From Candidatus Heimdallarchaeum aukensis (GTDB lineage: Archaea; Asgardarchaeota; Heimdallarchaeia; Heimdallarchaeales; Heimdallarchaeaceae), in contig CP084166.1 in the NCBI GenBank assembly GCA_021513695.1, positions 512,001 to 576,000 on the forward strand: a DNA stretch of 64,000 nucleotides, given 5' to 3'. The notes under the pieces are model-generated. The model made no database searches and was not told the origin of the DNA. It was given only the letters and a program-made list of their open reading frames with translations. This document shows positions 21,960-58,981 of this stretch, piece after piece; the stretch's first letter is position 1; the number at the start of each line of letters is the position of its first letter. Made by a program: the position numbers and the translations under genes.

Positions 21960-22523
21960 TTATGATTTTTTCATTTCAAGCTGATTTACCAACCATGTAA
22001 ATGCTTCGTTTACTCCTGTTCCGTTTATTGCACTGCAGTCAAACACTGCAAAAGTTCTATCTTTCATTTCTAAATGTAGTCCTAGCAATTGTATTAGCAT
22101 TGGTGCTTGTATTGATTCTGGTAGATCTTGTTTATTTGCTATTATCAGGCAAGGTATTTTTTCTAAATACGGATTGTTAAATACATGAACTTTTAATATA
22201 TCTCTCGCTTCTGGCAATCTTTCTATATCTGCTGCATCTATTACAAATATTACTGCTGAACTTCCTGGGTAATGCACTTCCCATAGAAATCTGAACTGTT
22301 TTTGTCCTGCTACATCTACTATAGTAATATTCCAATCTGCAAAGTTTACTGTATCTATGTTTTGTCCTATTGTTGGTACTGTATCTTGAAAGTCTCCTGT
22401 GTTTACATATTTCATTAATGTAGTCTTACCTGCTGAATCTAAGCCTAAAACGATAATTTTAGCCTTTTTTTCTGATTTAAGTTTTTTCCTTAACCAAGAA
22501 GAAAACGATAGTTTAGAGCTCAT
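21960..22523 (-). CDS. Arf/Arl-like small GTPase
   Basis: KIIVLGLDSAGKTTL (P-loop in the Arf form GLDxAGKTT), VPTIGQNIDTV, DVAGQ, LWEVHY, ANKQDLP, SAINGTGVNEAFTWLVNQL. N-terminal basic amphipathic segment MSSKLSFSSWLRKKLKSEKK without Gly2. Confidence 0.9.
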   Translation of the reverse strand: MSSKLSFSSWLRKKLKSEKKAKIIVLGLDSAGKTTLMKYVNTGDFQDTVPTIGQNIDTVNFADWNITIVDVAGQKQFRFLWEVHYPGSSAVIFVIDAADIERLPEARDILKVHVFNNPYLEKIPCLIIANKQDLPESIQAPMLIQLLGLHLEMKDRTFAVFDCSAINGTGVNEAFTWLVNQLEMKKS

Positions 22524-27000: not shown

Positions 27001-27561
27001 TTATATAGAATTTACCTCAAAGAATTTGACTATATTTTCTATAAGAGTAATAAAAGCTCTTTCTACATTTTCTCCTGTTTTAGCTGAAGTTTCTATATAA
27101 GGTACTTCGAATCCACTCCAATTACTTAGGCTTTTGGCATAATCTGCAGCATATTCATATGGTACTGCATTAGGAGTTGAATCACGAAGATCAGATTTGT
27201 TTCCAATTAAAAGCATAGGAACAATCTTATTTTTGTTATTCTTGATTAACTCATGAATCCAATTAGGTAATAATTCATATGTTTCAGGTCTTGAAATGTC
27301 AAAAACTAGCAAAGCACCTGAAGTTCCTCGATAATATACTTCTCTCACTGCAGAAAAACGTTGTTGTCCTGCTAAATCCCATATCTGTAGAGTATACTCA
27401 ATATTATTTAGTAGCATTTTCTTTACTGCAAAGTCTGCACCTACTGTCATGGCATATCCTGATTCAAAAGTTTCTCCTAAATATCGACGTCTTAACGATG
27501 TTTTACCTACTGCTCCTTCACCAAGCAATGAAACTTTAAAGATTCTCTGCACTTTTTTCAT
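27001..27561 (-). CDS. Rab/Ras-like small GTPase
   Basis: LLGEGAVGKTSL (P-loop), WDLAGQQRF, YYRGTSGALLVFDIS, GNKSDL, ETSAKTGENVERAF. No C-terminal Cys (ends FFEVNSI). Confidence 0.9.
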   Translation of the reverse strand: MKKVQRIFKVSLLGEGAVGKTSLRRRYLGETFESGYAMTVGADFAVKKMLLNNIEYTLQIWDLAGQQRFSAVREVYYRGTSGALLVFDISRPETYELLPNWIHELIKNNKNKIVPMLLIGNKSDLRDSTPNAVPYEYAADYAKSLSNWSGFEVPYIETSAKTGENVERAFITLIENIVKFFEVNSI

Positions 27562-34259: not shown

Positions 34260-35960
34260 ATGAAAAAAAAAGCGAAAATACTTTTTTTACTAATTGTTTT
34301 CTCAAACTTAGTTTTTGTTTTGGTAACAAATACAAAAAACATTAATGCATTAAAAGAGCCTATTACTAGTGATTCTAATGAATTTCGAGCGTATAGTTTT
34401 GCTGTTCCTTACATGTACACTGATGTTACGATAAAGAAAGATGGCTCGATAGATATTTCTTATACCATTAACTTTACAAATTTTATTTTTGGAAATACTA
34501 TTGACATTATAGATATTGGTTTTCCTAATAAACATTACAATCTTAAAAGTGTTCAAGCTTGGATAGATGGTTATGAGATTACTGATATAAGGGAGAGTGA
34601 ATACATTAGTATAGGAGTAGAGATACATTTAGGTAGTCATTCTATTTTACCTGGTGAGAGCGCTGTATTGGTAGTTAAAGGGAATAATCCTAAAATGGTT
34701 TTTAAAGACGATACCAAAAAAAATTTTGCTAGTTGTGTTTTCAGGCAAACTTGGTTTAGTTCACAATTTGCTTTTGGAGAAACTGAAAGAAGAGTGAGAT
34801 TTTATTTTCCTGAAGATTTAACTGATATGAATGAAGTAGAAAAAAGAGTTTCGGACACTAGTGTAAATTTCACTAGGGAAGCAGATTACGTCGAGTTTAG
34901 CAAAACCAGTACTCCCTATGATAATGATTTTTATGTGGGTGTAGGAATACCTTCTAACTATGTTGATAAAATGTATAGGGAGTTTTGGGTTTATAGATTT
35001 GATGAACTTGTTGCTCAAGCATTGTTTTTCCTTTTCTTCTTTGGATTCTTTGGGATATTTTTCTATGTTTTTTGTATTTATCCCCTAAAAGAAAGAAAAA
35101 GATATCTCCCTCCAACTATAAAGTCGACAGGAGGAGCTGTAAGAATGGGTTTGAAACCTTCCGAAGCAGCTATTATCTTAGAAAAACCTCTTACTCTTGT
35201 AGCTTCTTTAGTTATTTACGAAATGATGTCAGAAGGATTGATTACTGTTAAACAAAAAGAACCCTTAAGATTTAAAGTTGAGATATCTACTAAAGAGAAA
35301 TCCAAATTACCTACTTACCAGAAGCATATTATTAATGGAATTAAGAAAAGAGAAAAATCAGACTTAAAATGGGAAAAGGGAAGTGTTTCTGGTGCTCGAC
35401 CACACGATCCTTTTGACCAAGATTACATAAGAAAAGCGCTTTTATCCTTAATTAGAGAAACAACTATGAAAATGAAAGGGTATAACCTGAAGAAAACAAA
35501 GAAGTACTATAATGAATTAATAGAAAGAGCTTGGCAAGACATGAAAAAAGAAAGACCAGAACTAGAAAATGCTTTCCTATGGATAATGATAGATGAAGAT
35601 TATGACGACAGAATGAAAGATCATTATCATGACTATTATTACCCTTCATGGTATGTTTATCATTATCATACCCATTATTATGGTAGAAATAGAGGAAGAG
35701 GAAGAGATAGGATAACTGGTAGAGAATTAAGAAAATCTGGTTTTAGAAGAACAAAGATAACAGATAGGGGACAGATAATCCCTGGAACAGATTTCAAGCG
35801 AATACAAAAAAATATTGTTAGAAGCCCAAGAAAATTACTTTCGTCAGTAAAATCAAAGACCAGACCTGTTTCTAGCAGCTCGGGAAGAAGTGGAGGGGGA
35901 GGAGGAGGTTGTGCTTGTGCTTGTGCTTGCGCTTGCGCTTGTGCCGGAGGAGGACGATAA
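34260..35960 (+). CDS. DUF2207-like membrane protein with C-terminal GGGGGG-(Cys-Ala)6-GGGR tail
   Basis: AGGAG SD. Signal peptide MKKKAKILFLLIVFSNLVFVLV, ectodomain with YTDVTIKKDGSIDISYTINF, one TM (ALFFLFFFGFFGIFFYVFCIY), PP..GLKPSEAAIILEKP..LVIYEMMSEGLITV. His/Tyr block HYHDYYYPSWYVYHYHTHYY and RG-rich block. Tail SSSSGRSGGGGGGCACACACACACAGGGR. Confidence 0.75.
   Translation: MKKKAKILFLLIVFSNLVFVLVTNTKNINALKEPITSDSNEFRAYSFAVPYMYTDVTIKKDGSIDISYTINFTNFIFGNTIDIIDIGFPNKHYNLKSVQAWIDGYEITDIRESEYISIGVEIHLGSHSILPGESAVLVVKGNNPKMVFKDDTKKNFASCVFRQTWFSSQFAFGETERRVRFYFPEDLTDMNEVEKRVSDTSVNFTREADYVEFSKTSTPYDNDFYVGVGIPSNYVDKMYREFWVYRFDELVAQALFFLFFFGFFGIFFYVFCIYPLKERKRYLPPTIKSTGGAVRMGLKPSEAAIILEKPLTLVASLVIYEMMSEGLITVKQKEPLRFKVEISTKEKSKLPTYQKHIINGIKKREKSDLKWEKGSVSGARPHDPFDQDYIRKALLSLIRETTMKMKGYNLKKTKKYYNELIERAWQDMKKERPELENAFLWIMIDEDYDDRMKDHYHDYYYPSWYVYHYHTHYYGRNRGRGRDRITGRELRKSGFRRTKITDRGQIIPGTDFKRIQKNIVRSPRKLLSSVKSKTRPVSSSSGRSGGGGGGCACACACACACAGGGR
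35910..35945 (+). repeat. hexanucleotide coding repeat (TGY GCN)x6 encoding (Cys-Ala)6
   Basis: TGTGCT TGTGCT TGTGCT TGCGCT TGCGCT TGTGCC, in frame with 34260-35960. Confidence 0.95.
35946..35954 (+). promoter_or_regulatory. Shine-Dalgarno-like GGAGGAGGA for the radical SAM gene, embedded in the terminal Gly codons of the upstream gene
   Basis: GGA GGA GGA CGA TAA A ATG: 7 nt separate the purine run from the ATG at 35962. Confidence 0.5.
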
Positions 35961-35961
35961 A

Positions 35962-37284
35962 ATGCCAAAAGAAGAAAAAGAAGAACAGAAAAAGATGTTT
36001 CACCTAAGAAACGAAGAAACCTTTACTAGAATGCATTTAAGGAAAGAAAAGAAAGGACAAGGAATACTAATAGTTAACGCCAACAGAATCTTTCACCTAA
36101 ATAAAACAGCAACTCAATTCGTTGAATACATAATAGAAGGAAAAAAAGATGAAGAAATAATAAGAAAAATGGTTAACAAATACAATGTTCACGAATCACA
36201 AATAAGAACAGATCTAATGAATCTGAAGATCGCAATAGAAGATATAGTAAATAAACCAGATATTGACCCGGTACAAGAACTGTTTGACGAAGATATGGAA
36301 ATGGAGAGAATGATTTTTTCAGCTCCATTGAGAATGGACTTGGCTATAACTTACAAATGCAATAACAAATGTGTCAAATGCTACGTTGAAGAAAAAAGAG
36401 AAATAAAAGAATTAACAACAGAAGAATGGAAAAAAGTCTTAGATAAACTGTGGGATATAGGTATTCCCCACGTAACATTTACTGGAGGAGAACCCACAAC
36501 AAGAAAAGATTTAGTGAAACTAGTAGAATACGCAGAAGATATAGGCATAGTAACGGGACTAATAACCAACGGAAGAAACCTGAAAGACAAAAAGTTAGTA
36601 GAAGAACTAGTAGCAGCAGGAATAGATCATTTCCAAATAACAATAGAAAGCCATATACCAGAAGTACATGATAAATTAACAGGAGTAAAAGGATCGTGGG
36701 AAGAAACAGTAGAAGGAATAAAAAACGTTGTACCTACACCAGTGTTTATTATGACAAACACAACTCTAGTTCCAGAAAACATAAAAGAAATAGATAAAAC
36801 AATAGAATTTTTAGCTAAGTTGGGAATAGACCACTTCGCAGCAAACGGAATAATAAAAGCTGGAGGAGGAAAAGATGACTCACTAGACTTAACAGTAGAA
36901 GAACTAAACAAAACACTAGATACAATAATGAAGAAAGCTGAAGAAATGAAAATGAGATTTCTATGGTACTCACCAACAAGATATTGTGAATTTAACCCAG
37001 TAAAGAAAGGACTAGGAGTAAAACAATGTACAGCAGGAAATATAGCAATGGCAATAGAACCAGATGGACAAGTAATACCATGCCAAAGCTACTTTGAACC
37101 ACTAGGAAACATATTAACTACTCCATGGAAAAAAATATGGAACCATAAAACAACAAAAAGAATAAGAAAAAGAAAATACTTGCCCCAAGAATGCAAAGGC
37201 TGCCCAGAAAAAGAAATATGCGGAGGAGGATGCCCTCTAAATTATCAAGCGCCAATAACTGTTTGCAGAGACGCTCTTTCGTAA
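35962..37284 (+). CDS. radical SAM / SPASM-domain peptide-modifying enzyme with N-terminal PqqD-like (RRE) domain
   Basis: PqqD-like ILIVNANRIFHLNKTATQFVEYIIEGKKDEEIIRKMVNKYNV...DLMNLKIAIEDI; CNNKCVKC (Cx3Cx2C); FTGGEP. SPASM pattern C-x12-G-x4-C (CTAGNIAMAIEPDGQVIPC), CKGCPEKEICGGGC (Cx2Cx5Cx3C) and a final Cys. Start moved from the ORF-track 35890 to the SD-preceded ATG at 35962. Confidence 0.9.
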   Translation: MPKEEKEEQKKMFHLRNEETFTRMHLRKEKKGQGILIVNANRIFHLNKTATQFVEYIIEGKKDEEIIRKMVNKYNVHESQIRTDLMNLKIAIEDIVNKPDIDPVQELFDEDMEMERMIFSAPLRMDLAITYKCNNKCVKCYVEEKREIKELTTEEWKKVLDKLWDIGIPHVTFTGGEPTTRKDLVKLVEYAEDIGIVTGLITNGRNLKDKKLVEELVAAGIDHFQITIESHIPEVHDKLTGVKGSWEETVEGIKNVVPTPVFIMTNTTLVPENIKEIDKTIEFLAKLGIDHFAANGIIKAGGGKDDSLDLTVEELNKTLDTIMKKAEEMKMRFLWYSPTRYCEFNPVKKGLGVKQCTAGNIAMAIEPDGQVIPCQSYFEPLGNILTTPWKKIWNHKTTKRIRKRKYLPQECKGCPEKEICGGGCPLNYQAPITVCRDALS

Positions 37285-37346: not shown

Positions 37347-37639
37347 TTACATCTTTTTTCCTTTTCCTGTTTTTTCCCATTCACTAAACTTATCTATTAG
37401 TTCGTCAATAGCATGTGTTATCTCTTCAGTGATTTTTTCAACAATAATTAATTTGTCATCTTCAATTCGAATAGACAAAATAGAACCGAGTTCAACCAAC
37501 CATAATTCAAGTTCATTAAGATCTTCAAAACCTAATTTTTCCTGTAAAGTAATTAAAGGTATTTTAGAATTATTAGATAGGACTTTGAATAATTTTTAGC
37601 TCTTTCTATTTCAATATCGCGAGAATCAAAATAGTTCAT
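37347..37639 (-). pseudogene. orphan duplicated 3' fragment of the 40618-43875 gene
   Basis: About 290 bp, near-identical by eye to 40618-40910. It translates to [15 protein letters not shown], loses frame, and ends ...KFSEWEKTGKGKKM*. Its ATG overlaps the TGA of 37636-40335 (ATGA). Confidence 0.8.
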
Positions 37640-40335
37640 TTTTTCTTCCCCTTTCCTTTACGTTCCCACTCACTGAACTGTTTGAGTAAATCATCAATAG
37701 CTGTAGTCATATCTTCAGAAACAAATTCGCCCTCAAATTGTAAGTCAAAGATTACTTCGTCTCTTTCGATTCTATTCGGTACATCCTTTGAATAGATGTA
37801 TAACCATAATTTCATAATCTCTATATCTTCAAAATCTAATAATGGAGAAAGCTTATTTAGACTTATTTTGTCGTAAACTAAACTAATTTTCTTAAGACGG
37901 TCAAGTATTTTATTATTAGTTTTTTTATCATTAATTATTTTTGTTAATTCAGACAATGTTCTATTATCTTCATCCAGTATATCTTTAACTATCGTTACTT
38001 TCTTTGTTGCAAAATCAAAAACTTCTGACCAATTATGTGCAAAAGATGGAAATAGTTTCTTAATTGTAGAAAAAGTATCACCTTTAAAAGAGATTATATA
38101 ATTTAAGAATGATAGCAATTTTTTATAACTAGCTATTATAGGCTTAAACTCTTGATCAGACCACTTTTCAATGAGTTTAGTTAACATTTCTTTTTTGAAA
38201 CTTTGTAAATTTGTAAAATTAATAAGATCAACTAAATAATTTATTTTACTGAGAACGGTATTATTTACGAAATAATCTAATTGATCATATGTTTTGTTTA
38301 ATTGTTCTCTTTCTATTTTTCTTAATTTTCTCTTATTTGAGCTGATAAAAAGGTAATCTTTAAGAAATAGTTTCAATTTTTCAAGATATTTTATAATCTC
38401 CTCAATTGAACTAATAAATAATAGTAAGGAAGAAGTGTTTATGAAAATCTTATCAAATTCTTCATTTAATTTAGTTTGCATATTTATTATCCCTGAGAAA
38501 TTTTCTCTTATCCTTAACCTTATTTTGTGTTCATAAACAAAAAAAAGAGGTAGGATAACAGATATAAGAAGTATAAGAGAAAAACATATTTTTTCAATTG
38601 GTTTAAGATAAATACTCTTTTTTAAAGGATTTTTACCATTTTCTATTTCCCAACCATCGAACAAACCGTCATCATCAGTATCAGAATCTAAAGGGTCAGT
38701 TCCAGCTAGATACTCTTCCAAATTAGTTAAACCATCTCCGTCCAGATCTTCTGATGAATCATATAACAAAGGGTTTAATGAATTACATAGTTCCCATCCA
38801 TCAGGTATGCCATCATCATCAGTATCGGGATCATTAGGGTCAGTTCCAGCTTGATATTCTTCTAAATTAGTTAAACTGTCTTTATCTTTGTCAACATAAG
38901 TGTCATTACTCAAAGGATTCAATAAAAATTCTACTTCCCAACTATCAGGTATGCCATCATCATCAGTATCAGAATCTAAAGGGTCAGTAGAATGCAAGGT
39001 CACTTCTTGAAAATCAGATAAGCCATCATCGTCAGTGTCTGAATCTAAAGGGTCAGTACTGTAAATAGTCACTTCTTGAAAATCAGAAAAGCCATCATCG
39101 TCAGTGTCTGAATCTAAAGGGTCAGTACTGTAAATAGTCACTTCATCTCCATCGTTCAAGCTATCATCGTCAGTGTCTGAATCTAAAGGGTCAGTACTGT
39201 AAATAGTCACTTCATCTCCATCGTTCAAGCTATCATCGTCAGTGTCAGAATCCAAAGGGTCAGTAGAATTCTGATACTCTTCTAAATTAGTTAATCCATC
39301 GCTATCTGGGTCTTCTGCAGAATCATCGATAGTAGTGTTTAAACCATTATTTTCTTCCCATTTGTCAAGCATATTATCTTGGTCTAAGTCTACATGCATG
39401 GGATAAGGATCAAAATTGTTAGCTGAACCATCTATAGGATATGGTCCTGTTCCACTCCAGTCATACCAATAGTTACCTGTTGTACCAGAATAAAATTTAT
39501 TGTATGTCCCATAATCACATGCTTGAGAAGAACCACCTAGATTATTTTTTATTAAGAAGTTTTTTACAAATATTTCATTTTTAGAGCTCTCATTTAGATA
39601 TATACCATAAGAATAACTATTTATTATAATATTGGAAGTAAAAGTATTTTTGTTAGAAACATCAAAGAGAATACCATAATTACTACTATTTACAACAGTA
39701 TTTGAAATAAAAGAATTGTTAGAACTACAAGAAAAAAATATGCCATCATAATAACTATTTGTTATAGTATTGGAAGTAAAAGTATTATTAAAACTAGAAT
39801 GAAGAGACATACCATAATTACTACATATCACAGAGTTGAAGGTAAAAGTATTATTGTTACTACAATAGAGGAAAATACCTACATTATAGCTATTTATAGT
39901 ATTATTAAATACAGTTATTGTTCCATCTGCAACAGAATAAATATAAATACCATAAAATGAACTTGAACCGCCCCCTTCAAGATAACAATCTCGAATAAGA
40001 ATATACTTTGTTGTCCCAGATATCTTTATACCATGAGATGTAGAGTCAGTTATACTATAGTTTTCAATGACATAAGGGTTATCTTTTGTCCCAGAACCAG
40101 GAAAAACAGTAAGATCATCATCAGACTCAATAAGAATAGGCGAATGAACTGTATAAACTTTTTTTACAGCTCTAGTTTCATTTGAATTTACACTAGACAT
40201 TGAATCTATTGTTATTTGATTAGATTGTAGAACCATATTTTCCTCTATTTGAGTCGAAAGGTAAACAAAGAAAACTGTAGTTGTTATTAATATTAGTACT
40301 AAACTTAATTGTATATAAGTTGCTATTCTTTTCAT
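37636..40335 (-). CDS. giant type-I membrane protein A: beta-helix (PbH1/NosD-like) + TSP3-type Ca-binding repeats + TM + cytoplasmic coiled coil + conserved C-terminal module
   Basis: Signal/anchor [26 protein letters not shown]. PbH1-like units ([19 protein letters not shown]...), [17 protein letters not shown], repeated [34 protein letters not shown], then about 330 aa Lys/Glu-rich helical sequence ending [21 protein letters not shown]. Confidence 0.8.
38948..39268 (-). repeat. tandem 69-bp (23-aa) coding repeats, TSP3-like
   Basis: Units [23 protein letters not shown] x2 are almost identical at the DNA level. They are followed by [46 protein letters not shown] and a partial fifth unit. 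Confidence 0.9.
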
Positions 40336-40617: not shown

Positions 40618-43600
40618 TCATTCTTTTTTACCTTTTCCTGTTTTTTCCCATTCACTAAATTTATCTATTAGTTCGTCAATAGCATGTGTTATCTCTTCAG
40701 TGATTTTTTCAACAATAATTAATTTGTCATCTTCAATTCGAATAGACAAAAAAGAGCCAAGCTCAACCAACCATAATTCAAGTTCATTAAGATCTTCAAA
40801 ACCTAATTTTTCTTGTAAAGTGAATAAAGGTATTTCAGAAGTAGTGGATAAAACCTTGAAGAATTCTTTAGCTCTTTCTATTTCAACATCTCGAGAATCA
40901 AAATAGTTTATTTTTTCTTCTATTTTTTCTTTTAATTCATTGTATTGTTCTATTCCATTGCTGGATAGCTCTCCTACTGTCTCTGTGTTCATAACCCTAC
41001 TATAATTTTCTTTCCAGTTAGCTAATTTTTCGTCAAACTCTTTAAAATATAACTCACTTTCTGTTATTTTTCCTTTTAGAGAATACACAAACAGATTATC
41101 TATTTCTTTTCTTAGCTCTTCTCCTTTTTTATCTAACAATATTAAAGGATAAAGATAAATAAGATCTCGAACTTCTTGTCTCTTATTTTCTATTTCTTGT
41201 AATTCCTCTAACAAGTCTTTTCTTTCTTCATTGGTTATTTGTTTAGAAAGAATTTCAAGTTTAGATTGAAAAAAATCACGAAAACCATCTGTTATCTCTA
41301 ATAACTTTTTTACTTTCTCGTAGTTAATATTAATGTTTAAGTCTTGTTGATTAATTATTTCTTTCTCTATTTCTAAAAATTCATCAAAGGTTTGTTTTTT
41401 GTGTATCTTAATTTGATTAATGTACGCATTTAATTCTTCTTTTGAAATTTGCTCATCAATATTTTTGATTTCATAGATCTTGGAAGAAAGCAAAGCATTT
41501 CGTATATCTATTTTTTCTATCTCTTTGGCATAGATTAAGTACTCATTACTTAATTCTTTGAATTCAAAAAAGACTTTAGCTATCCTTTTATTATAGTTAT
41601 CAAGATCAATTTTTTTATAATCGTTCTTTTGCACATAGCTATTGATCTGTTGCAAATCAGAGAGCAGTTGTTGCTTCTTTTCTAATATTTTATTCAACAA
41701 TAAGATATATTCATCTGTAATTTTTCTTTCTAATTCAGTCTTAATTTGTGATAACTTTTCTATAAAATCATTAATCTCCCTTTTCACTTTTTCAAATTCA
41801 ATAATATTTTTCTTTCCAATTATAACCTTAAATAAATTAAACTTTGAGCGATAAGAACCAATAATATTATCTAATTGTTTAGCACTATTAACCCATTCTT
41901 TAAAATTATCAGGTGAATATGATTGAAGAAGATATTCATCTATTTTTTCCTTAAATTTATTAAATTCCAAAAATTGTTTATTATATTCGTTCTTCAGTTG
42001 GATGATTTTTTCTCTCTGTTTTTTCTTAATTAATAAAATAGTTGTTGTTACGCTTCCTATTACCAAAAAACTCAATAGACAGGAAAGCACAATTTTAATT
42101 TTTTTTGCTCGAGGATTGCTTAATTTATTTAATGGATCACTTCCATAAATGATTATTTCATCATAATCATTAAATTTGTCATCATCTGTGTCATTTTTTG
42201 TTGGATCTGTGTGGTAAGCATATATTTCTTCATAATCAGATAAACCATCTCCATCAGTGTCAGAATCTATGGGATCAGTTAAGAAAACTATAACTTCTTG
42301 ATAATCAGTTAAACCGTCGCTATCTGAGTCTTTCTTATAAGGAAAAGAATGAAATATTTTAACTTCTTCATAATCACTTAATTTATCATCATCAAAATCC
42401 CCATCTCTTATACATCCTCCAAAAATAACTTCATCATAATCATTAAGACCATCACCATCAGTGTCATTGAAATTAGGATTAGCCATCCACTGATATTCTT
42501 CTAAATTTGATAAGCCATCTCCATCAGAATCGGCCTTGGAGTCATCTAAATTATAGACAATTTCCCAAGCATCTTCCATTCCATCAGAATCAGAATCATT
42601 CTCGACAGATGCAACTCGCCTAGGAAAGATATCTCCAATTTTATTTCCATAAATAGAATAAAAATTGGTAGTACCATCCCAATCTTCCCATAAATTGCCA
42701 ACTAGTAAAGTAGGAGAATACCAGTAAGTGTTAGTGCCATAATCTTCATTATTATCTTGAATCTTCAAAAAAGAATTATTGAAGACTATGTTATAATCTC
42801 CTCTTTCACCAATCCTTACTCCCCCTAAACCTGTTCCACAAAAAAGGTTATTATAAATCAAACTGTTACTTACTTCGAAACCATAACTAATAGCAAAATT
42901 AGTTGAATTATAGATATTGTTATTACTAATAACAACGTTATTACATCTTTCTAAATATAATCCATCTGATGTTGCTCCATTTATCAAATTATCAGAGATT
43001 ACAATTTCACTATTACCACTTGACCATAGGCATGAAGCCCAATCATTAGTTGTTTTTTCTAAATTATTGTAAAAGATTTTTATTTTTTTATTATCTCTAA
43101 CTCCAATGCTTCCTGCTCCATTAGTTATACATGTGTTTTTTATAATTGTAACATTTGAAGATTCAGAAACTAAAATACCAAAACCAGAGTTATTGGCAGA
43201 ATAATTATTTTTTATCAAGCTATCTCCAGATTGATGTACCAACACGCCATATTGATTATAAAGAAGAGTACAATTCTCAACTATTACACCACCTGCTCTA
43301 GTTTCAGAAGAAATCCCAACTTCATAACCTTGAATAAAACAATTCCTAATTATTACGAAAGAACTAACATAACGAATAACAATACCACAAGAATTTTCTA
43401 AATACTCAGTATCACCAGTTGAAACTTCATAGTTCTCAATTATATAAGGGTCTGCTTCAGTTCCTGAACCAGGAAACCCAAACTTTACAAAGTCTTCTTC
43501 ACTATTGATTTCTATCGGTGAATGAACAATATAACGTGTTTCTTTAGCATTGTTTCTTTCGGCAATTGCTTTTTGACAAGAACTACCATGGTTTATTTGT

Positions 43601-43875
43601 CTGTAGCTTGAAGTTAAATTATGCTTATCAATTGAGCGATAATTATCATATTCTTTTCCATTCTCTGTTTTATTGTTATTAAATTTAGAAGCCTTTTCAT
43701 CTACATAATTATCTATTAGGTGAAAAGTTGGAGTAAGAAAAAGAAAAATAACTAAAGAAACAATAATTCTTTTATAGTTTGGAAATATATTGTTTAATAT
43801 TTTCATTTCTAGAACAAGTATATACATTACAATAAAAAAATAAAAGTTTTTCTTCACTATTTCTTTTCTTTTCAT
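40618..43875 (-). CDS. giant type-I membrane protein B (same architecture as A, longer coiled coil)
   Basis: N-terminal anchor, beta-helix units (NNSGFGILVSESSNVTIIKNTCITN...), TSP3-like DSDGDGLSNLEE / DTDGDGLNDYDE / DSDTDGDGLSDYEE, TM IVLSCLLSFLVIGSVTTTILLI, and about 480 aa coiled coil ending AIDELIDKFSEWEKTGKGKKE. Confidence 0.8.
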   Translation of the reverse strand: MKRKEIVKKNFYFFIVMYILVLEMKILNNIFPNYKRIIVSLVIFLFLTPTFHLIDNYVDEKASKFNNNKTENGKEYDNYRSIDKHNLTSSYRQINHGSSCQKAIAERNNAKETRYIVHSPIEINSEEDFVKFGFPGSGTEADPYIIENYEVSTGDTEYLENSCGIVIRYVSSFVIIRNCFIQGYEVGISSETRAGGVIVENCTLLYNQYGVLVHQSGDSLIKNNYSANNSGFGILVSESSNVTIIKNTCITNGAGSIGVRDNKKIKIFYNNLEKTTNDWASCLWSSGNSEIVISDNLINGATSDGLYLERCNNVVISNNNIYNSTNFAISYGFEVSNSLIYNNLFCGTGLGGVRIGERGDYNIVFNNSFLKIQDNNEDYGTNTYWYSPTLLVGNLWEDWDGTTNFYSIYGNKIGDIFPRRVASVENDSDSDGMEDAWEIVYNLDDSKADSDGDGLSNLEEYQWMANPNFNDTDGDGLNDYDEVIFGGCIRDGDFDDDKLSDYEEVKIFHSFPYKKDSDSDGLTDYQEVIVFLTDPIDSDTDGDGLSDYEEIYAYHTDPTKNDTDDDKFNDYDEIIIYGSDPLNKLSNPRAKKIKIVLSCLLSFLVIGSVTTTILLIKKKQREKIIQLKNEYNKQFLEFNKFKEKIDEYLLQSYSPDNFKEWVNSAKQLDNIIGSYRSKFNLFKVIIGKKNIIEFEKVKREINDFIEKLSQIKTELERKITDEYILLLNKILEKKQQLLSDLQQINSYVQKNDYKKIDLDNYNKRIAKVFFEFKELSNEYLIYAKEIEKIDIRNALLSSKIYEIKNIDEQISKEELNAYINQIKIHKKQTFDEFLEIEKEIINQQDLNININYEKVKKLLEITDGFRDFFQSKLEILSKQITNEERKDLLEELQEIENKRQEVRDLIYLYPLILLDKKGEELRKEIDNLFVYSLKGKITESELYFKEFDEKLANWKENYSRVMNTETVGELSSNGIEQYNELKEKIEEKINYFDSRDVEIERAKEFFKVLSTTSEIPLFTLQEKLGFEDLNELELWLVELGSFLSIRIEDDKLIIVEKITEEITHAIDELIDKFSEWEKTGKGKKE

Positions 43876-44044: not shown

Positions 44045-46010
44045 TTACTTCTTTTTCCCCTTTCCTGTACGCTCCCACTCACTAAACTGTTTAAGCAGAT
44101 CATCTATAGCTTCAGTCATATCTTCTGCCACGAACTCACCCTCAAGTTGTATATCGAACATTACTTCTTCTCCTTCTATCTGATTTGGTAAATCTTTAGA
44201 ATAAGCATATAACCATAGTTTCAAGACCTCTTTGTCTTCAAAGTCTAACAAAGGAGAAAGCTTGGTTAAACTTATTTTATTATAAACAGAACTAACTTTC
44301 TTAAGTCTTTCAAGTCTCATATTATTATTCTCACTATCATTAAATATTTTAGCTAACTCACCTAATAATTGTTCATTTTGTTCTAATAGTTCTTGGACAA
44401 TAACCAATTTTTCAGTAGCTAAATCTTTAATATCAGACCAGAAAGAGTCAGAAGAAGCAAATTTAGTAAAAGCTTTATGATCAATAAAAGCTACAATGTA
44501 ATTTAGGGTTGATAATATCTCTTCATAGCTGATAATTAGAGGTTTGAACTCCTTATCAGACCAATTATAGACAATGTTAGTTAACATTTCTTTAGTGTAA
44601 TCAAACAAATTTTTATAATCAATAAATTCAATTAATGAAACTACTTTATCATGAAGAGAGGAGCTGATAAAAGAGGTTATTTTTTCAAAAATCTTGTTAA
44701 ATTGTTCTTGTTTATTAGTTTTTAATCTTTTGCTGTTAGAATGAACAAAAATTAACTTTTCAAGAAGATTACCTAACTTTTCAAAATAGTCTTTTATCTC
44801 CTCTGCAGAAGAAACGAAAGAAATTAATGAAGAAATTTCTGTAAAAGTTTCCTTATACTTTCCATCTAATTCAGATTGTAAATGAATTACTTTTTCAAAT
44901 TTTTCCTTTACTTTTATTCGCATTATTAATACATGAATGGAGAATGTTACAAGAATAACAAATATAGGAAGTATAGCAAAATAACCTATTTTTTCTACTT
45001 GAGACAAATAAATATTCTTTTTTACAGGATTTTTTCCATTTTCTACTTCCCAACCGTCAAGCATACCATCTCCATCAGTGTCATTGTCCAAGGGGTCAGT
45101 AGAATAGATATGAACTTCTTGACCATCAGTCAGTCCATCTCCGTCACTGTCACTGTCCAAGGGGTCGGTATTGTAAGTATTTATCTCTTCATAGTCATCA
45201 AGTCCATCGTCGTCTGTGTCATTATCTATGGGGTTAGTACCTATTTGATACTCTTCTAAATTGGTCAAACCATCATTATCAAAATCCTCTGTAGAGTCAT
45301 CAATATTTGTGTCCAAGCCATTATCTTCTTCCCATTTGACGGGTATATTATCCTGGTCTAGATCCACATACATAGGATAAGGATCAAAGTTATTAGCGGA
45401 ACCATCTATTGGATATACTCCTGTTCCATTCCAGTCATACCAATAGTTCCCTGTTGACCCAGAATAAAACTTATTGTTTGTTCCCTCATCATACGCTTGT
45501 GAAGAACCACCTAAATTATTTTTAATTATGATGTTTTCCATAAAACTATTATTAGAGTATAACGGAGTCTTATACCATAAGAATTACTATTAGCTATAGT
45601 TTTAGAGCTAAAAATATTGTAAGAACTATTAAGAATATATACACCAATATAGCTACTGTTTGCTATGGTGTTAGAGGTAAAAATGTTATAAAAACTATAG
45701 CCTAGTTATATATTGTAGATACCACCATTTGTTATAATATTATTTATAAAAATATTATTAGAACTAGAACCGAGACTAATACAACACCAATCATTATTTA
45801 TAATTGTATTAAAAATAAAGTTGTTATTAGAACTATAACCTATTCGTATACCGTAATAACTAACAGTAATATTATTGAAAAAGAATGTGTTATTAGAGCT
45901 ATATTGAAGATTTATACCACTGGTAATTATATTTGTTATTTTATTAGAAATAAATGTATTATTAAAACTAGTTTCAATCCAAATACCATAATTCTTATTA
46001 TTTCTTTAGT
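44045..46010 (-). pseudogene. paralog C of the giant membrane protein family, 5' (beta-helix) part decayed
   Basis: ORF 44045-45541 starts inside the conserved [25 protein letters not shown] segment. DNA from 45542 to about 46010 still resembles the PbH1-repeat region of A (39600-39900) but contains stops and frameshifts, and no signal peptide remains. Confidence 0.75.
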
Positions 46011-47054
46011 ACCAACAATAAGTTGACCGATTTCTATAGGTTAAAATTATAGAAGTCCATACTATCATTGTCGTGTTTCCAACACAAAGTTTTTACGATA
46101 ATTCGGAAGTACTATATTTCTTATAAAAAAATATAAAGTTGCAAAAAAACAAATTTACAAATTTTCCAACTACAACCATTATTCAATGTTAATGTTTTGA
46201 ATTCAATAATTATTCTCCTCTGTTGCCTTTTTTGGTTTATTGCAATCTTCTTTGTTGTTCTTTATTTCCTCTTCAAAGGTTGTTTAATAATTTGTTTAGA
46301 GTTAATCTAATTTCTGAACGAGTTTTATTATCAGGAATAAGAAAAGAGACTTTTACTCCATTACTTTTATTATAAAACATATCTGCTACTTCACGTAAAT
46401 TATTCTTAATTTCAATTAATTCCTCAGGAATTGGACTACTTTTAGGCAATTGTTCTACTTTTGCTTGATAAATGTCAAATAATACCGAATACAATATTTC
46501 GGTAGTAAAATAATATTTTTCATAATGAGAGTTTTTCCAATCCTCTTCTTTTAGATTTTTTTCTTTTATATGTTTGATTCCTTTATATTTTTTCCCACTC
46601 GCTAGCTCTTCAAGATAATAATGAGATTTTGCATGTTTTAAATACTTACCCTTGATAGGTGATTCTTTTTTAAATTCAGTAACATCAAGATGAAACGAGT
46701 ACGTAACTTTTTTCTCTGTATCATACTTTATAGGCCTTTCTAATAAAGAATAAAATATTACAAAAATTAATTTCGCTAATAATTTTGTATCACAGTCATT
46801 CTCATTTATTTCCTGTTCTATTCGCTCAAAAACTCCAAATCTTTCTAGTAGATAGATTTTATCTTCATTATTGAACAAAAATGTAACTAATTCTAAAATT
46901 ATATACTCTTTGTCATCACTATCAGAAGAAAAAGTGAAAAGATCTTTAAACTCATCAAAAACCTTTAGACGAAAGAGATAATCAAGATCACTGTTCTTAG
47001 CTGCGTATTTAACTGTTTCAAAGTAAAACATATTTATTATCACAAAACCAACAA

Positions 47055-48065
47055 TGTTCACTCAATAGACCTGGGTTACACTTTTGGGTACTAGAGAAAC
47101 ATAGGGGTGATTCATAAATTTTTCTCCAGGAGTAAGGAGGTTAAGAGACTGGTGAGGACGGCTAAAATTGTAGTATGAGCGGTAGAAGGAGAGGTCGGAG
47201 TTACAGTAGGTTAGTCCTAGTCTTTTCATCTCACGGATAATGGTTCCATGTAGTCTTTCTACTTTTCCACATGTTTCGGGGTGAAAAACTCTAGATCTTA
47301 TGTGCTTTATTCCCTCTGTTTGACACCAACGGGAGAAGGTACTTGTTCCCCCTCTAACGGAGTAGAATAGTGCTCCATTGTCTGTGAGAATAGACTCGGG
47401 GTATCCATATTTTTCTACTGCTTCTTCTAACAGACTTATTATCTGCTCTTTTTTCGGTGCGAAAGGGTGGAGTTTAGCTCCCAGGCAGAATCGTGAGTGG
47501 TCGTCTATTAGAGTTATGAGATAAAGGTGTTGTCCTTGTTCTTCTACCCAGAAAGGTCCTTTCACATCTATCTGCCAGAGTTCGTTAGGGGATGAGCGCT
47601 CAAAACTCTTGTATTGAGTAATGTTTCTCTTTTTTCTATTACTCCACAGAGGAAGACCTAACTCCCCTATTACTTTAACTACTGTGTTTCGCGATAGTGC
47701 TCTTCCTTCTTTCTTCAACAGATAAACTATCTTCTCCACGTTCATTCCTTGCTTTACTCTTAACTCCCTTATCCTCTCTCTTAACTCCTCATTCACTTTC
47801 CTGTGTATAGTTTTAGGTCTAGATGATCTATCCTTCCACCATTCTCCTTCAGGGTTCTCCTTAAACCTTTTCAACCACTTATATACAAACTTCCTACTCA
47901 CCATATACCTGTGAGCTACCTCTTTTATCTTCTCTCCTTCCAAAGCTTTTTTAACCACAATCTTTCTTAGTCTCTCTAGGTTACGTTTGGGTTTGTTCAT
48001 AATTCGTCACTTACCCTCGTAACCCACTTTCTATTTATTTGTTACCAACGTGGGTAGAGTAAACA
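47055..48065 (-). mobile_element. IS481/IS3-like (rve integrase-type) insertion sequence
   Basis: 1011 bp between the 16-bp direct repeats. Imperfect terminal repeats TGTTCACTC.../TGTTTACTC... One ORF. Visibly more G+C-rich than host DNA. Confidence 0.8.
47062..48000 (-). CDS. DDE transposase, rve (integrase core) type
   Basis: 312 aa with an N-terminal HTH (KEVAHRYMVSRKFVYKWLKRF). LWQIDVKGPF (D), ESILTDNGALF (D), CGKVERLHGTI (E), YNFSRPHQSL. Confidence 0.85.
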   Translation of the reverse strand: MNKPKRNLERLRKIVVKKALEGEKIKEVAHRYMVSRKFVYKWLKRFKENPEGEWWKDRSSRPKTIHRKVNEELRERIRELRVKQGMNVEKIVYLLKKEGRALSRNTVVKVIGELGLPLWSNRKKRNITQYKSFERSSPNELWQIDVKGPFWVEEQGQHLYLITLIDDHSRFCLGAKLHPFAPKKEQIISLLEEAVEKYGYPESILTDNGALFYSVRGGTSTFSRWCQTEGIKHIRSRVFHPETCGKVERLHGTIIREMKRLGLTYCNSDLSFYRSYYNFSRPHQSLNLLTPGEKFMNHPYVSLVPKSVTQVY

Positions 48066-50694: not shown

Positions 50695-51700
50695 AAGCAT
50701 GTCCAAAAATTCTTTTTCACCAACTATACAGTCCGAAGGAGTAAAAGGTAGTTGTAACAGAGGAGAGAACTATAAAGAGTAGAAAGAATGGTGGAGGGTA
50801 AGTGATCAAGGATTGGGGGAAGAGAGAGTTTGAGGAGACCAAAGACGTGTTCAATACTACTACGATACTCGGGGTGATGATTATGGCGATAGAGACCAGG
50901 GTAGAGACGATGAGCTTGAACTATTGATCCGAGAGGAGGAGAGGGATAACGAGCATTACTTTTTGGGGGAATAACAGGGAAAAAGGAATGTTGTCTAAGA
51001 AGACCGACGATATTTTCTGTCCAGTTGGCACAGTCTCCATAAAATCTCAAGAGCGGTCTCAAGAGTGCAGAAGGAAGTTTCTGCCATAGTAAACCGAAGA
51101 CTTTACTATCGTGAGTGTTACTAGCAGAATGAGCTAAAGAGATTATAGCTCTGGAGGGTAAACCAACTATAAGGTGTATCTTCCAGAAAAGTTTAGTTTG
51201 GAGGTTTTCTTTAGTCCTCCTCTTGCCCACTTGAGAAAACGCCAAACAGAAGCTTGACGGATTTTAAACCCTGAACTATCCACCGCCATAGCTTTCAACC
51301 CTTTTTTTTTCACTATTTCCCCACCTAAGTTTATTATCCACCGCTCTAAAATTTTACTTTCTGTCGCTCTCCACACTGCATGAAAAGTAGATTTGGAAGG
51401 AATCTTCTTCATCCACCCCTCTTCTATCAAAAAATCGCATAGAGACAACTTTTCCTCTAACTTCCTCCAAGCAATTCCTTCTATTCTAGCAATGATCGCT
51501 AAAGCCAGTATCACCCACCTTTCTGCTATTCTTTTTCTCCCTCTCTTACTTTCTCTCGGTTCCTCTTTCACCAGTTTCTTAAGGAAAGGTTCATTAATGA
51601 TTATGAATTCTCTTGCTTTGTGGAGGTCTATGATCTGAAAGAAACTCATACTTCCGACATAAACCCCCACATTAATAAAAATTAATTTTTGGACATGCTT
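50695..51700 (-). mobile_element. IS5-family-like insertion sequence, copy 2
   Basis: Perfect 17-bp terminal inverted repeats AAGCATGTCCAAAAATT (50695-50711) and AATTTTTGGACATGCTT (51684-51700). I found no flanking direct repeat. Confidence 0.85.
50724..51670 (-). CDS. IS5-type DDE transposase in two overlapping frames (orfA 51167-51670, orfB 50724-51245; a -1 shift is needed)
   Basis: orfA ends ...AVDSSGFKIRQASVWRFLKWARGGLKKTSKLNFSGRYTL*. orfB carries KIHLIVGLPSRA...NTHDS...YGDCANW...IEHVFGLLK to the natural end. It has fewer lesions than copy 1. Confidence 0.7.
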
Positions 51701-56562: not shown

Positions 56563-57276
56563 ATGTTTCATGACTTTCAAGTTCAAGATGGTATTAACCT
56601 TTACAATTCCAATGGTTTTATTATAAAAAATAATACCATTTCCTATGGCGGGTATGGACTATTTGTATCTGAATCTTCACACGGGGTATATACTAATAAT
56701 ACTTGTATAGAAAATAGCAAATATGGTGTTTATATAAAATATGGATACAACATTTCTATCAATGAAAACAACTGCAGCGCTAATGATCAAGGTATAAATC
56801 TTTACAACTCTTCTACAATTTATATCCACAATAATAGCATAAGTAAAAACACTATTGGACTGACTTTTGATCTCTCTAATCATTCAATCATCACTTTTAA
56901 TTCATTTGAGAAGAATGAACAATATGCAATAATTATGGATTCTTCATCTTCTTCTAATCTCATCCATCATAATACGTTTATTGACAACAACTTGCAAGGA
57001 ACATCTCAAGCTTGTGATAATGGTCATAATAATACTTGGTATGACCAATCAACAAAAACTGGTAATTATTGGTCTGATAGAAAAGGGATAGGAAAATATT
57101 ACATAGATGGTAATAGTAAATCGTATGATAAATACCCCCTAAAAAATCTCCCTCAACAATGTGCTGAAAAAACTTCTATTGATTTTCTCATCATTCTGAT
57201 CTCTTTTCTCTCTACAGTTATTTTGTCTTATGTCATAAGAAACAAGTATGCATTCAGACAATTACGATTTAGATAG
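56563..57276 (+). CDS. beta-helix (PbH1) protein fragment with C-terminal TM, N-terminally truncated relative of the giant family
   Basis: PbH1 units (NNTISYGGYGLFVSESSHGVYTNNTCIEN...), NNLQGTSQACDNGHNNTWYDQSTKTGNYWSD..GKYYIDG as in A and C, and TM FLIILISFLSTVILSYVI. No signal peptide; the frame opens only at 56551. Confidence 0.5.
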   Translation: MFHDFQVQDGINLYNSNGFIIKNNTISYGGYGLFVSESSHGVYTNNTCIENSKYGVYIKYGYNISINENNCSANDQGINLYNSSTIYIHNNSISKNTIGLTFDLSNHSIITFNSFEKNEQYAIIMDSSSSSNLIHHNTFIDNNLQGTSQACDNGHNNTWYDQSTKTGNYWSDRKGIGKYYIDGNSKSYDKYPLKNLPQQCAEKTSIDFLIILISFLSTVILSYVIRNKYAFRQLRFR

Positions 57277-57916: not shown

Positions 57917-58981
57917 TTAATTATCATAGAATCGTAAATAGAAATAACTGCTAGGATCACCATCTTCAAGTACAGGAACAGAAGTGTAGGCATCAACATA
58001 ATCTTTTATTGTGTCAAAAACATTTTCTAAGTCAAGGTCAAAATTTATCCATTCACAACTGGAGCTATCCCAGTATTGTTTTATAAAATAACCTGTAAGA
58101 GCTCCATGGTAGTTGCTTCCATCCGGCATATAATTAAAGAATTTAGCTTGAGTAGTTTCATTGTATCTACACGCTGCAATCATAAGTACATTCTCTGAGG
58201 CTTGAATAGACATTATTTCATTCATTCCTCCAGAAAAGCATGAATCAATAAAAACAAGTAATTTTGATTCATAAGTCGTAGTTGAATCAGAACAAGCAAA
58301 TTTATCAAAAAGTATCTTTAAATTATAGTCATAAAGAAATTCATCTATTCCATAAGCTTGAACACTATGCTCTTCTTCATTATAACTATATCCATGCCCC
58401 GAGTAAATAAAGAATATTAAGTCATTTGGATCAGAATTTTCAACAACATTAGCTGTAACATCGTAAATATTTTGTAGTGTTGCTTGATGATAATCAAAGT
58501 TAAAGATACCACCTCCAGGACCTGATGTGTCAGGTAAATCAAAAAGACTTTCTCGATTTACAGATTCTTCGTGGCCAAGTAGGTGAACATTCATAGAAAA
58601 AGAAACAATATCATAAGTTTCTGGTTGTTGATCAAATAATTCAAAAAGAGCTGAAGCCCACATACACCATAAAATTGCATCTTCCCACGCACCAGCACAA
58701 TATTGTCCAGTTTGATCTTGACCAATACCGATAATAATAAACTCTGCCTTAATTTTATTGTCAGTGCCACTAGGATAGTCTATTACTGGAATAGTTGGTC
58801 CATTAACTCCTCCCCCATCACCGGTACCAGGATCAAGTTCAAAACCTTTTGTCAATAAGACTTCTTGAAAGAGTGTATTATTTATACTAGAACATAGTAA
58901 TGTCGATAAAATAAATAACGTAATAAAAATATTTTTATTAATTTTATTCACAGACCTATTAAAAAAATAACAACATCCCAT
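57917..58981 (-). CDS. extracytoplasmic caspase-like (clan CD) cysteine peptidase
   Basis: N-terminal anchor IFITLFILSTLLCSS. His/Cys dyad contexts LIFFIYSGHGYS and LLVFIDSCFSGGM. Confidence 0.65.
   Translation of the reverse strand: MGCCYFFNRSVNKINKNIFITLFILSTLLCSSINNTLFQEVLLTKGFELDPGTGDGGGVNGPTIPVIDYPSGTDNKIKAEFIIIGIGQDQTGQYCAGAWEDAILWCMWASALFELFDQQPETYDIVSFSMNVHLLGHEESVNRESLFDLPDTSGPGGGIFNFDYHQATLQNIYDVTANVVENSDPNDLIFFIYSGHGYSYNEEEHSVQAYGIDEFLYDYNLKILFDKFACSDSTTTYESKLLVFIDSCFSGGMNEIMSIQASENVLMIAACRYNETTQAKFFNYMPDGSNYHGALTGYFIKQYWDSSSCEWINFDLDLENVFDTIKDYVDAYTSVPVLEDGDPSSYFYLRFYDN

Follow-up and report, generated by a model that had tools for sequence, protein, structure and literature searches.

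A predicted PCI-type winged helix and amphipathic helix at the C-terminus of a family of Heimdallarchaeial membrane proteins

PCI scaffolds, such as the proteasome lid, the COP9 signalosome (CSN), eIF3 and TREX-2, are regarded as inventions of the eukaryotes, of unclear origin. In the lid and the CSN, C-terminal helices form an inter-subunit bundle. A PCI-like winged helix (WH) is also carried by DDRGK1, which comprises a transmembrane (TM) segment, a long charged helix, a C-terminal PCI-like WH and a partial WH. DDRGK1 completes the partial WH of its partner and docks a large cytoplasmic machine, for example the ribosome. Heimdallarchaeia are the archaea usually placed nearest to eukaryotes. 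Asgard homologues of UFL1 and DDRGK1 receive brief mention in the literature. In short passages of their survey, Makarova et al. 2024 describe archaeal ESCRT loci with membrane-associated Ser/Thr kinases that carry a small C-terminal PCI-like wH, as well as ESCRT-associated proteins of Asgard archaea with HTH/PCI domains, with oligomerisation or contacts between wH domains as the proposed role (PMC10936438). These passages and the mentions of Asgard UFL1 and DDRGK1 homologues come nearest to a published account of the proteins analysed here, and no description of their family was found in the searched literature.

We analysed a stretch of 64,000 nucleotides from Candidatus Heimdallarchaeum aukensis (contig CP084166.1, positions 512,001 to 576,000), hereafter the window, in which three genes on the minus strand, A, B and C, encode proteins with similar C-terminal ends.

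Gene architecture and the C-terminal module

The product of gene B comprises, in order, an N-terminal signal anchor, a NosD-type right-handed β-helix, TSP3 Ca-binding repeats, a TM segment, a helical cytoplasmic region of about 380 aa and the C-terminal module. Its Pfam matches are to NosD, Beta_helix and TSP3_bac. Gene A has the same architecture, and gene C is a truncated A-type paralogue without the signal anchor and the β-helix. The module is located in the cytoplasm, about 300-470 residues from the membrane in A and B. Gene C adjoins an IS481-type element. Positions in the window are as follows.

37636-40335, minus strand: gene A, 899 aa; TM at residues 583-601 (38533-38589).
37636-37938, minus strand: A C-terminal module and stop codon, the sequence modelled by AlphaFold2; HMM score 92.6 bits.
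37870-37926, 37747-37869, 37714-37746, 37654-37713 and 37639-37653, minus strand: pre-helix, WH, linker, helix and end of the A module, respectively.
40618-43875, minus strand: gene B, 1085 aa, from the ORF call; C-terminal end AIDELIDKFSEWEKTGKGKKE.
42028-42093, minus strand: B TM, residues 595-616.
40618-40920, minus strand: B C-terminal module, last 100 codons and stop codon (40618-40620), from the alignment of the tails.
40837-40896, minus strand: B pre-WH helix, residues 994-1013, placed via alignment to the A model.
40714-40836, minus strand: B winged-helix core, residues 1014-1054 (strand, helix, helix, strand, strand).
40636-40695, minus strand: B terminal acidic amphipathic helix EITHAIDELIDKFSEWEKTG, residues 1061-1080; helix in the AlphaFold2 model.
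40621-40635, minus strand: B basic end KGKKE, which contains the family-conserved Gly-Lys.
44045-45541, minus strand: gene C, 498 aa; TM at residues 185-206 (44924-44989).
44045-44347, minus strand: C C-terminal module and stop codon, with the WH at 44156-44278, the helix at 44063-44122 and the end at 44048-44062; HMM score 103.2 bits.
37347 to about 37650, minus strand: orphan relic of a B-type module; HMM score 80.7 bits.

With the family HMM described below, the B tail has a score of 79.4 bits; the match covers residues 999-1088 in the stop-to-stop frame. The original prediction had placed the module at 40618-40910, a 293-nt interval that holds the B stop codon and about the last 97 codons and whose upper edge falls off a codon boundary. 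All three ORFs end as it had quoted, and the similar segment of about 60 aa that it described ahead of these ends aligns in all copies. Its view that the rest of the cytoplasmic region has diverged strongly between A and B agrees with identities computed in 50-residue bins, which are 18-32% over the coiled-coil region against 45% in the last 49 residues. Between C and A, the corresponding values are 30-50% over the coiled-coil region and 72-79% in the last 100 residues.

In the same prediction, the tail had been taken for a small helical docking domain, possibly similar to a winged helix, that ends in an interaction helix. The domain and the helix were both recovered when AlphaFold2 was run on the last 100 residues, with the WH more specifically of the PCI type; docking is still a matter of interpretation. 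Two helices (pLDDT 84-94 in the A model) are predicted immediately ahead of strand 1, followed by the WH (pLDDT 90-95), a linker and the terminal helix. The latter is predicted in both models at low pLDDT (50-71), which fits a helix in need of a partner. The models thus show a module of about 100 residues, predicted to consist of one or two helices, a PCI-type WH, a short acidic linker and an acidic amphipathic helix of 17-20 residues that ends in Gly-Lys plus 0-2 residues.

Extent of the family and its conserved chain end

We performed an exhaustive HMM search of 1.84 billion proteins with a profile of the tails (E<=1e-3). Conservation outside the locus, on which the original prediction depended, was found in about 100 protein clusters: the profile recovered 102 cluster representatives, 23 of them at E<=1e-10, and the conservation of the tail is therefore far above chance. 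Word-indexed homology searches with the tails returned near-identical fragments only, and NCBIfam holds no model for them. The module sits at the extreme C-terminus in about 90% of the representatives, and 93 of 105 sequences end no more than 5 residues past it. Many members have TM segments upstream of the module. Their N-terminal parts are highly diverse and include β-helix/TSP3, LRR, FG-GAP or LVIVD propellers, TPR/HEAT and zinc ribbons. All named sources (6/6) are Heimdallarchaeota MAGs, and the nearest genome, Ca. Heimdallarchaeum endolithica PR6, encodes at least 8 paralogues within 34 kb. Within the Asgard archaea, the module marks out a large family of paralogues in Heimdallarchaeia and is constrained to the C-terminus. 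No recurrent partner gene was found in the gene neighbourhoods of six family members. Paralogues often lie in tandem, and one subgroup of the family is found on contigs of 64-65% GC (L006, L007). For these contigs, neither a plasmid match nor tRNA genes were found.

The consensus end of the family is AID-LL--F-EWE---G-GK plus 0-2 residues. Among 81 tails, the conserved columns of the terminal helix are I, D, LL, F/Y, W/F and E, and the Gly and Lys at the chain end are conserved in 78% and 93%, respectively. The Lys tail of the original prediction is present in A, B and C, where the ends are indeed Lys-rich; the end conserved across the family is a single Gly-Lys close to the C-terminus and not a poly-Lys tail. 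Gly-Lys is missing from the internal copies of tandem modules and may therefore be a mere chain-end cap. It could act as a helix C-cap or make a contact that needs a nearby free carboxylate. A Walker-A reading of G-x-G-K was rejected, as the motif lies at a helix end at the chain terminus, without a nucleotide-binding fold. MIM1 motifs have a conserved Arg and UIM motifs an Ala-x-x-x-Ser spacing; both features are missing from the column profile, and these two readings of the terminal helix were likewise set aside.

The chain end itself could be the functional element, with the WH as a mere spacer. The Lys-rich end and its free carboxylate would then constitute a C-terminal sorting, retention or membrane-contact signal, either a di-lysine signal (KKxx/KxKxx) or a polybasic membrane anchor. 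The chain ends of A, B and C read K-G-K-K-K or K-G-K-K-E, with Lys at -3 and -5 on free cytoplasmic C-termini of membrane proteins, as in the di-lysine signals of eukaryotic type I membrane proteins. The conserved Lys lies 0-2 residues from the C-terminus in 71/81 tails, and RING-containing variants have Lys runs at their ends as well. Lys-rich ends are rare in other proteins of the window: of its 45 ORFs, just four (A, B, C and one more) have at least three Lys in the last six residues, and such ends are thus not a property of the whole genome. However, just one Lys is conserved family-wide, at -3 in 46/81 tails, and position -5 is Lys or Arg in 30/81. Unlike a di-lysine signal, the pattern is not kept across the family, and here it comes together with a folded domain and a conserved helix, both at least as conserved as the end. 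The helix beside the end is acidic in A and B, and the membrane is several hundred residues away. We know of no COPI-like coat in Asgard archaea and of no coat partner for such a signal in archaea at large. A sorting signal is thus an improbable explanation, and the resemblance to eukaryotic trafficking motifs, which the original prediction had itself called speculation, goes no further than the formal fit of A, B and C to KxKxx.

Relationship to PCI subunits and a candidate docking role

The strand and helix arrangement of the tail WH is the one given as defining the PCI winged-helix subdomain (PMC1274264), and the module has the arrangement of PF01399. As in the PCI domains of CSN7, Rpn5, Rpn12 and eIF3a, the WH is followed by a C-terminal helix near the protein C-terminus, and the two share the sequence pattern R...L..I...Y..I.L..LA.LL.F.....E.WL.......I.G..V.F. 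Nearly all of the top 35 or so Foldseek matches are PCI subunits of the lid, the CSN or eIF3. They align with the 100-residue query over 82-106 columns, and the terminal helix is therefore part of the match. In sequence comparisons, the best match of the family profile in the PDB is the eIF3a PCI domain (E 0.026). PCI is the sole recurrent Pfam match of the family: of 90 distant members, 25 match at E<=0.01 and 7 at E<=2e-4 (best E 1.4e-7), always on model positions of about 24-63.

With 22.6 bits, P0053 reaches the Pfam gathering score for PCI (22 bits). In the window this score is not reached: C scores 15.9 bits, with weak matches of its tail to PCI, Paf67 and CSN8_PSD8_EIF3K, and A and B have no PCI match. 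At its edge, the family therefore shades into PCI, but A, B and C are not PCI proteins by Pfam. They also differ from the PCI subunits of the lid, the CSN and eIF3 in being archaeal and membrane-anchored, and the family has no known MPN partner or defined complex. Upstream of the module, A, B and C have no Pfam match to TPR or HEAT repeats and contain a coiled-coil-like region instead of a TPR-like solenoid; such repeats precede the module in P0053 and three other members (P0038, P0067 and P0046). To our knowledge, the conserved ID-LL--F-EWE helix with its Gly-Lys end has no PCI counterpart.

On balance, we lean towards the tail being a PCI-like assembly or docking module common to many surface proteins. 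The mean net charge in 81 members is -3.75 (sd 2.5) for the WH and -2.6 for the helix, and binding to protein is therefore favoured over binding to nucleic acid. In the manner of eukaryotic PCI subunits, the acidic winged helices would contact one another laterally or bind a common partner. The terminal helix, on its flexible tether, would pack with its hydrophobic face (I, LL, F/Y, W/F) into a bundle or onto that partner. In this way, a single cytoplasmic structure would collect, or be coupled to, many different surface proteins.

The same acidity bears on a role as a membrane-tethered DNA-binding regulator, similar to ToxR or CadC or freed by proteolysis, which we regard as very improbable. 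The acidic WH does not fit the combination of a basic or polar recognition helix and a positive DNA-binding face, and the third helix, in the 'recognition' position, carries a conserved hydrophobic L-x-x-W-L motif, as expected of a PCI core. PCI subunits rank above regulators in both structure searches, and the family has many paralogues per genome, on adhesin-like proteins.

The tail might instead correspond in archaea to the membrane-anchored winged helices found in the UFM1 E3 complex of the ER membrane, in a scaffold similar to that of UFL1 and DDRGK1. The layout of DDRGK1 (UFBP1) is found here, with a membrane anchor, a long helical region and a C-terminal PCI-like WH. However, the three window tails have no Pfam match to DDRGK even at E<=10, and at the same cut-off no DDRGK1 chain of the PDB is matched by the family profile. 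An hhalign comparison with an approximate DDRGK1 C-terminal sequence gives a probability of 0.5%. In both structure methods DDRGK1 is outscored by PCI subunits. It has one N-terminal TM and no ectodomain, and its C-terminal element is a partial WH, whereas here a single amphipathic helix with a Gly-Lys end follows the WH. Such a relationship is thus unlikely.

An alternative that is quite improbable in our view is a handle coupled to ESCRT, in which the tail WH would bind to winged helices of the ESCRT-II or CdvB type, or to ESCRT-III, and label these membrane proteins for sorting or vesicle budding. Arf- and Ras-like GTPases are encoded in the Asgard genome to which the window belongs, and a precedent exists in ESCRT-linked archaeal proteins with a PCI-like wH (PMC10936438). 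As far as published descriptions allow the comparison, the kinases of Makarova et al. 2024 too are membrane proteins of archaea and carry a small PCI-like WH at the C-terminus (PMC10936438). Unlike these, the present proteins have other N-terminal domains and no kinase, and no family locus is linked to ESCRT genes. The closest structural similarity is to PCI subunits and not to the winged helices of Vps22, Vps25, Vps36 or CdvB.

If the tail is indeed a PCI-like docking module, dozens of adhesin- or receptor-like ectodomains (β-helix/TSP3, LRR, FG-GAP, LVIVD) would share one cytoplasmic handle. Such a handle would parallel the adaptor-binding tails of eukaryotic adhesion receptors and would constitute a testable principle of Asgard cell-surface organisation. 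The tail offers a simple bait for a cytoplasmic partner in cultured Asgard archaea. Far more tentatively, and with only a small chance of being right, the Heimdallarchaeial family might be the prokaryotic forerunner of the PCI module of eukaryotes, or a sister to it, and could even stand in the same relation to the winged helices of UFL1 and DDRGK1. In that case, the device of a WH and a C-terminal helix would first have gathered diverse membrane receptors and adhesins on a sub-membrane scaffold and would later have entered the soluble complexes (lid, CSN and eIF3), and the invariant Gly-Lys would be specifically recognised or modified by a partner. A large membrane-anchored family with a C-terminal PCI-like domain in Heimdallarchaeia would be a concrete candidate source of the PCI module.

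Recombination and selection at the locus

The fragment at 37347-37639, which the original prediction had taken for a copy of the module, is an orphan relic of about 290 nt with 92% DNA identity to the 3' end of B. It starts inside the last Lys codons and the stop codon of A, where an A-rich microhomology (GAAGAAAAAAT) forms the junction. Loss of 1 nt near 37595 causes a frameshift and leaves a TTG ORF of 50 codons (37347-37499). The orphan is also found in the related contig L001, where the arrangement of the locus differs from that in the window.

The similar ends of A, B and C could have no function of their own and reflect recent duplication or gene conversion among tandem paralogues. The locus is recombinogenic, with its orphan copy, the truncated gene C, IS481 elements and the different arrangement in L001. 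However, identical tail residues are encoded by the same codon in only 50-69% of cases, as in the rest of the genes. Because the synonymous sites of the tails are as diverged as elsewhere, the conservation results from selection and not from gene conversion. In addition, about 100 distant clusters keep the module at 25-40% identity, with the same key residues. An origin in duplication or conversion alone is therefore extremely improbable, and the tail is under purifying selection.

A C-terminal tail common to three surface proteins

Coordinates 40618-40910 cover the 3' end of gene B on the minus strand; genes A and C flank this gene.

37636-40335, minus strand: gene A, open reading frame of 899 amino acids
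40618-43875, minus strand: gene B, open reading frame of 1085 codons
44045-45541, minus strand: gene C, open reading frame of 498 amino acids

A and B are built alike: the signal anchor at the N-terminus precedes a right-handed β-helix of NosD type and bacterial-type thrombospondin-3 (TSP3) Ca-binding repeats. Next come a single transmembrane segment with basic residues behind it, a long helical region rich in Lys and Glu, and the tail. This order of parts places the tail in the cytoplasm. C is an A-type paralogue without the signal anchor and the β-helix, and adjoins an IS481-type transposase gene.

The translated C-termini of A, B and C are exactly the peptides quoted in the original prediction, and the last ~100 residues, including the similar segment noted before each end, can be aligned in all copies. 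The strong divergence claimed for the rest of the cytoplasmic region is also observed, A and B being 18-32% identical in the helical region versus 45% in the last 49 residues. For C and A, identity is 30-50% in the cytoplasmic helical region and 72-79% over the last 100 residues. Recent gene conversion was rejected as the source of this amino-acid conservation, since identical residues of the tail use the same codon in only 50-69% of cases, no more than in the rest of the genes. Among the other window proteins checked, Lys-rich ends are not a general habit of this genome.

The orphan fragment beside A (37347-37650, minus strand) is, as proposed, a copy of the tail module, in which the last ~290 nt of B are duplicated with 92% nucleotide identity. 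The junction lies inside the final Lys codons of A, at the A-rich microhomology GAAGAAAAAAT, and the last Lys codons and stop codon of A derive from EEK(I/M)N of the B-type frame via this fusion. The orphan frame is broken by a 1-nt deletion near 37595. The orphan is a recombination relic. The related metagenomic contig L001 harbors the same relic behind its A orthologue (10017-10262), and its C equivalent is only a 128-aa tail fragment. The A/B/C locus is a hot spot for recombination between paralogues. The transposase gene (rve and HTH; 47062-48000, minus strand) lies directly upstream of the truncated C, abutted by a 262-aa open reading frame without assigned family (both within 46273-48000, minus strand). 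Near-identical transposases interleave with the paralogue array of Ca. H. endolithica PR6 (L004 5885-6673 and 13147-14085). A DDE_Tnp_1 fragment is found in the window at 50724-51245.

Predicted fold and PCI likeness

Two AlphaFold2 runs on the tail of A, with 6 and 81 aligned sequences, had the same outcome: one or two helices followed by strand-helix-helix-strand-strand at pLDDT 90-95, then an acidic low-confidence linker, a 20-residue helix (pLDDT 50-71) and a disordered end. The A-type tail is thus predicted to be a folded domain, in line with the suggested winged helix, whose core is the segment originally quoted. The terminal amphipathic helix is flexibly tethered in these models and is not docked in cis.

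A Foldseek search with the tail model returned nearly exclusively PCI subunits of the proteasome lid, the COP9 signalosome and eIF3 among its best ~35 matches, with no E-value below 0.001. These alignments cover 82-106 columns of the 100-residue query and thus take in the terminal helix. The window tails had only sub-threshold matches in Pfam, all to PCI-clan models (PCI, Paf67/eIF3L and CSN8_PSD8_EIF3K). Pfam PCI was also the commonest Pfam match in 90 distant relatives (25 at E≤0.01, 7 at E≤2e-4, best E 1.4e-7), always in one and the same region of the model. With the family profile, the best PDB match was the PCI domain of eIF3a (E 0.026), aligned from the helix preceding the winged helix through its third helix. 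The tail module is PCI-like. A, B and C are not classed as canonical PCI proteins, because they fall below the Pfam threshold and the region upstream of their module showed no TPR-like solenoid.

A family with a Gly-Lys end

An exhaustive profile search over 1.84 billion cluster representatives retrieved 102 proteins at E≤1e-3, establishing conservation outside the locus. The module ends within 5 residues of the C-terminus in 93 of 105 family sequences, and many members have 1-8 hydrophobic segments upstream of it. N-terminal parts are highly varied (β-helix/TSP3, LRR, FG-GAP and LVIVD propellers, DUF285, TPR/HEAT, zinc ribbons). Six members have a source name, in every case a Heimdallarchaeota MAG, and one assembly accounts for four of the six. 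The closest genome, Ca. H. endolithica PR6, has at least 8 paralogues within 34 kb, interleaved with IS481 transposases. The G+C content of the window is 31%; the contigs that carry P0064 (L006 4879-6192, L007 4106-5419) have 64-65% G+C, unlike the AT-rich Heimdallarchaeum loci. P0034, P0035, P0053, P0072 and P0089 group with P0064 by sequence, in a subgroup with 3-5 N-terminal transmembrane segments. The family may thus reach beyond known Heimdallarchaeia.

The winged helix follows the pattern R...L.KI...Y..I.L..LA.LL.F.....L..WL..LP.....I.G..V.F, then an acidic linker of 3-15 residues and the end [ED]-h-x-x-A-I-D-x-L-L-x-x-[FY]-x-[ED]-[WF]-E-x-x-G-x-G-K-[K/h]-x(0-1)-COOH. The hydrophobic helix residues I81, L84/L85, F88 and W91 (numbering of the A tail) lie on one face. 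Mean charge is -3.75 for the winged helix and -2.6 for the terminal helix, basic residues being confined to the last few positions. The acidic winged helix and its hydrophobic third helix make DNA binding unlikely.

The last Lys is kept in 93% of tails and the Gly before it in 78%, with 0-2 residues after the conserved Lys in 71 of 81. Of the acidic amphipathic helix with Lys tail originally described, the helix is family-wide; in A, B and C, the Gly-Lys end is locally elaborated into a poly-Lys run. A di-lysine-like or polybasic signal at the Lys-rich end would agree with A, B and C but not with the family as a whole, and is quite improbable. Four proteins (P0019, P0042, P0056, P0073) carry the whole module in two tandem copies, the internal one keeping the amphipathic helix but not the Gly-Lys end, which ties the latter to the chain end. 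The Gly-Lys end may cap the helix at its C-terminus, or make a contact that depends on the nearby carboxylate. In P0079, P0084 and P0086, a RING-H2-like zinc finger replaces the terminal helix after the PCI-like winged helix. All three end Lys-rich; P0079 (L011 8001-9095) has LRR repeats and no detected transmembrane segment, and the other two have N-terminal ones. These variants hint at a link to ubiquitin-type ligases.

Possible roles of the tail

The tail is under purifying selection. It is strictly C-terminal and lies on the cytoplasmic side in many membrane proteins that are unrelated to each other. In PCI subunits, winged helices touch each other laterally and C-terminal helices form a bundle. 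By analogy, we infer that the tail is most likely a protein-protein assembly or docking handle. Tails would assemble among themselves or attach to a single shared partner in the cytoplasm; both routes would gather diverse surface proteins on one structure or couple them to it.

The most interesting of the alternatives, albeit an improbable one, is a role like that of UFL1/DDRGK1. DDRGK1 shares its order of parts with the tail proteins and is a strong structural match, and P0051 (1012 aa; L008 10001-13039) combines 8 transmembrane segments, a UFL1-matching region and the family tail; however, neither the window tails nor the family profile carry a DDRGK sequence signal. Residues 389-514 of P0051 score 44 bits, above the Pfam E3_UFM1_ligase (UFL1) threshold, and P0051 may be a UFL1-like Asgard protein anchored in the membrane. 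Cdc48 is among its neighbours, as are Arf- and RagA-like GTPases. UFL1 and DDRGK1 have been proposed to originate from Asgard archaea (PMC10183829). Coupling to ESCRT has a precedent in the PCI-like winged helix of archaeal ESCRT-locus kinases (PMC10936438), but neither gene linkage nor structural ranking supports it here, and it is very improbable.

The fold class of the tail is already known, and small PCI-like winged helices on archaeal membrane proteins were mentioned earlier (PMC10936438). No description of this family was found in the literature searched; it is set apart by its invariant helix and Gly-Lys end, by the Heimdallarchaeia expansion and by the sharing of one tail among adhesin-like proteins. 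Its interest would be much greater if the module were ancestral to the winged helices of eukaryotic PCI proteins or UFL1/DDRGK1, or if a partner were found.

Three other surface-protein-like features of the window are without the module: a NosD β-helix fragment (56563-57276, plus strand), a caspase/legumain-like peptidase (57917-58981, minus strand) and a 920-aa FG-GAP propeller protein (59043-61805, plus strand). A 566-aa membrane protein within 34260-37284 (plus strand) ends in SSSSGRSGGGGGGCACACACACACAGGGR; the next gene, which overlaps it, codes for a PqqD-like RRE together with radical SAM and SPASM domains. The latter protein scores under all NCBIfam equivalog cut-offs and may be a maturase of RiPP type that acts on a large protein with a Cys-Ala repeat tail. 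Arf-family and Ras/Rab-family small GTPase genes at 21960-22523 and 27001-27561 (both minus strand) are typical Asgard eukaryotic-signature genes, in line with Heimdallarchaeum.
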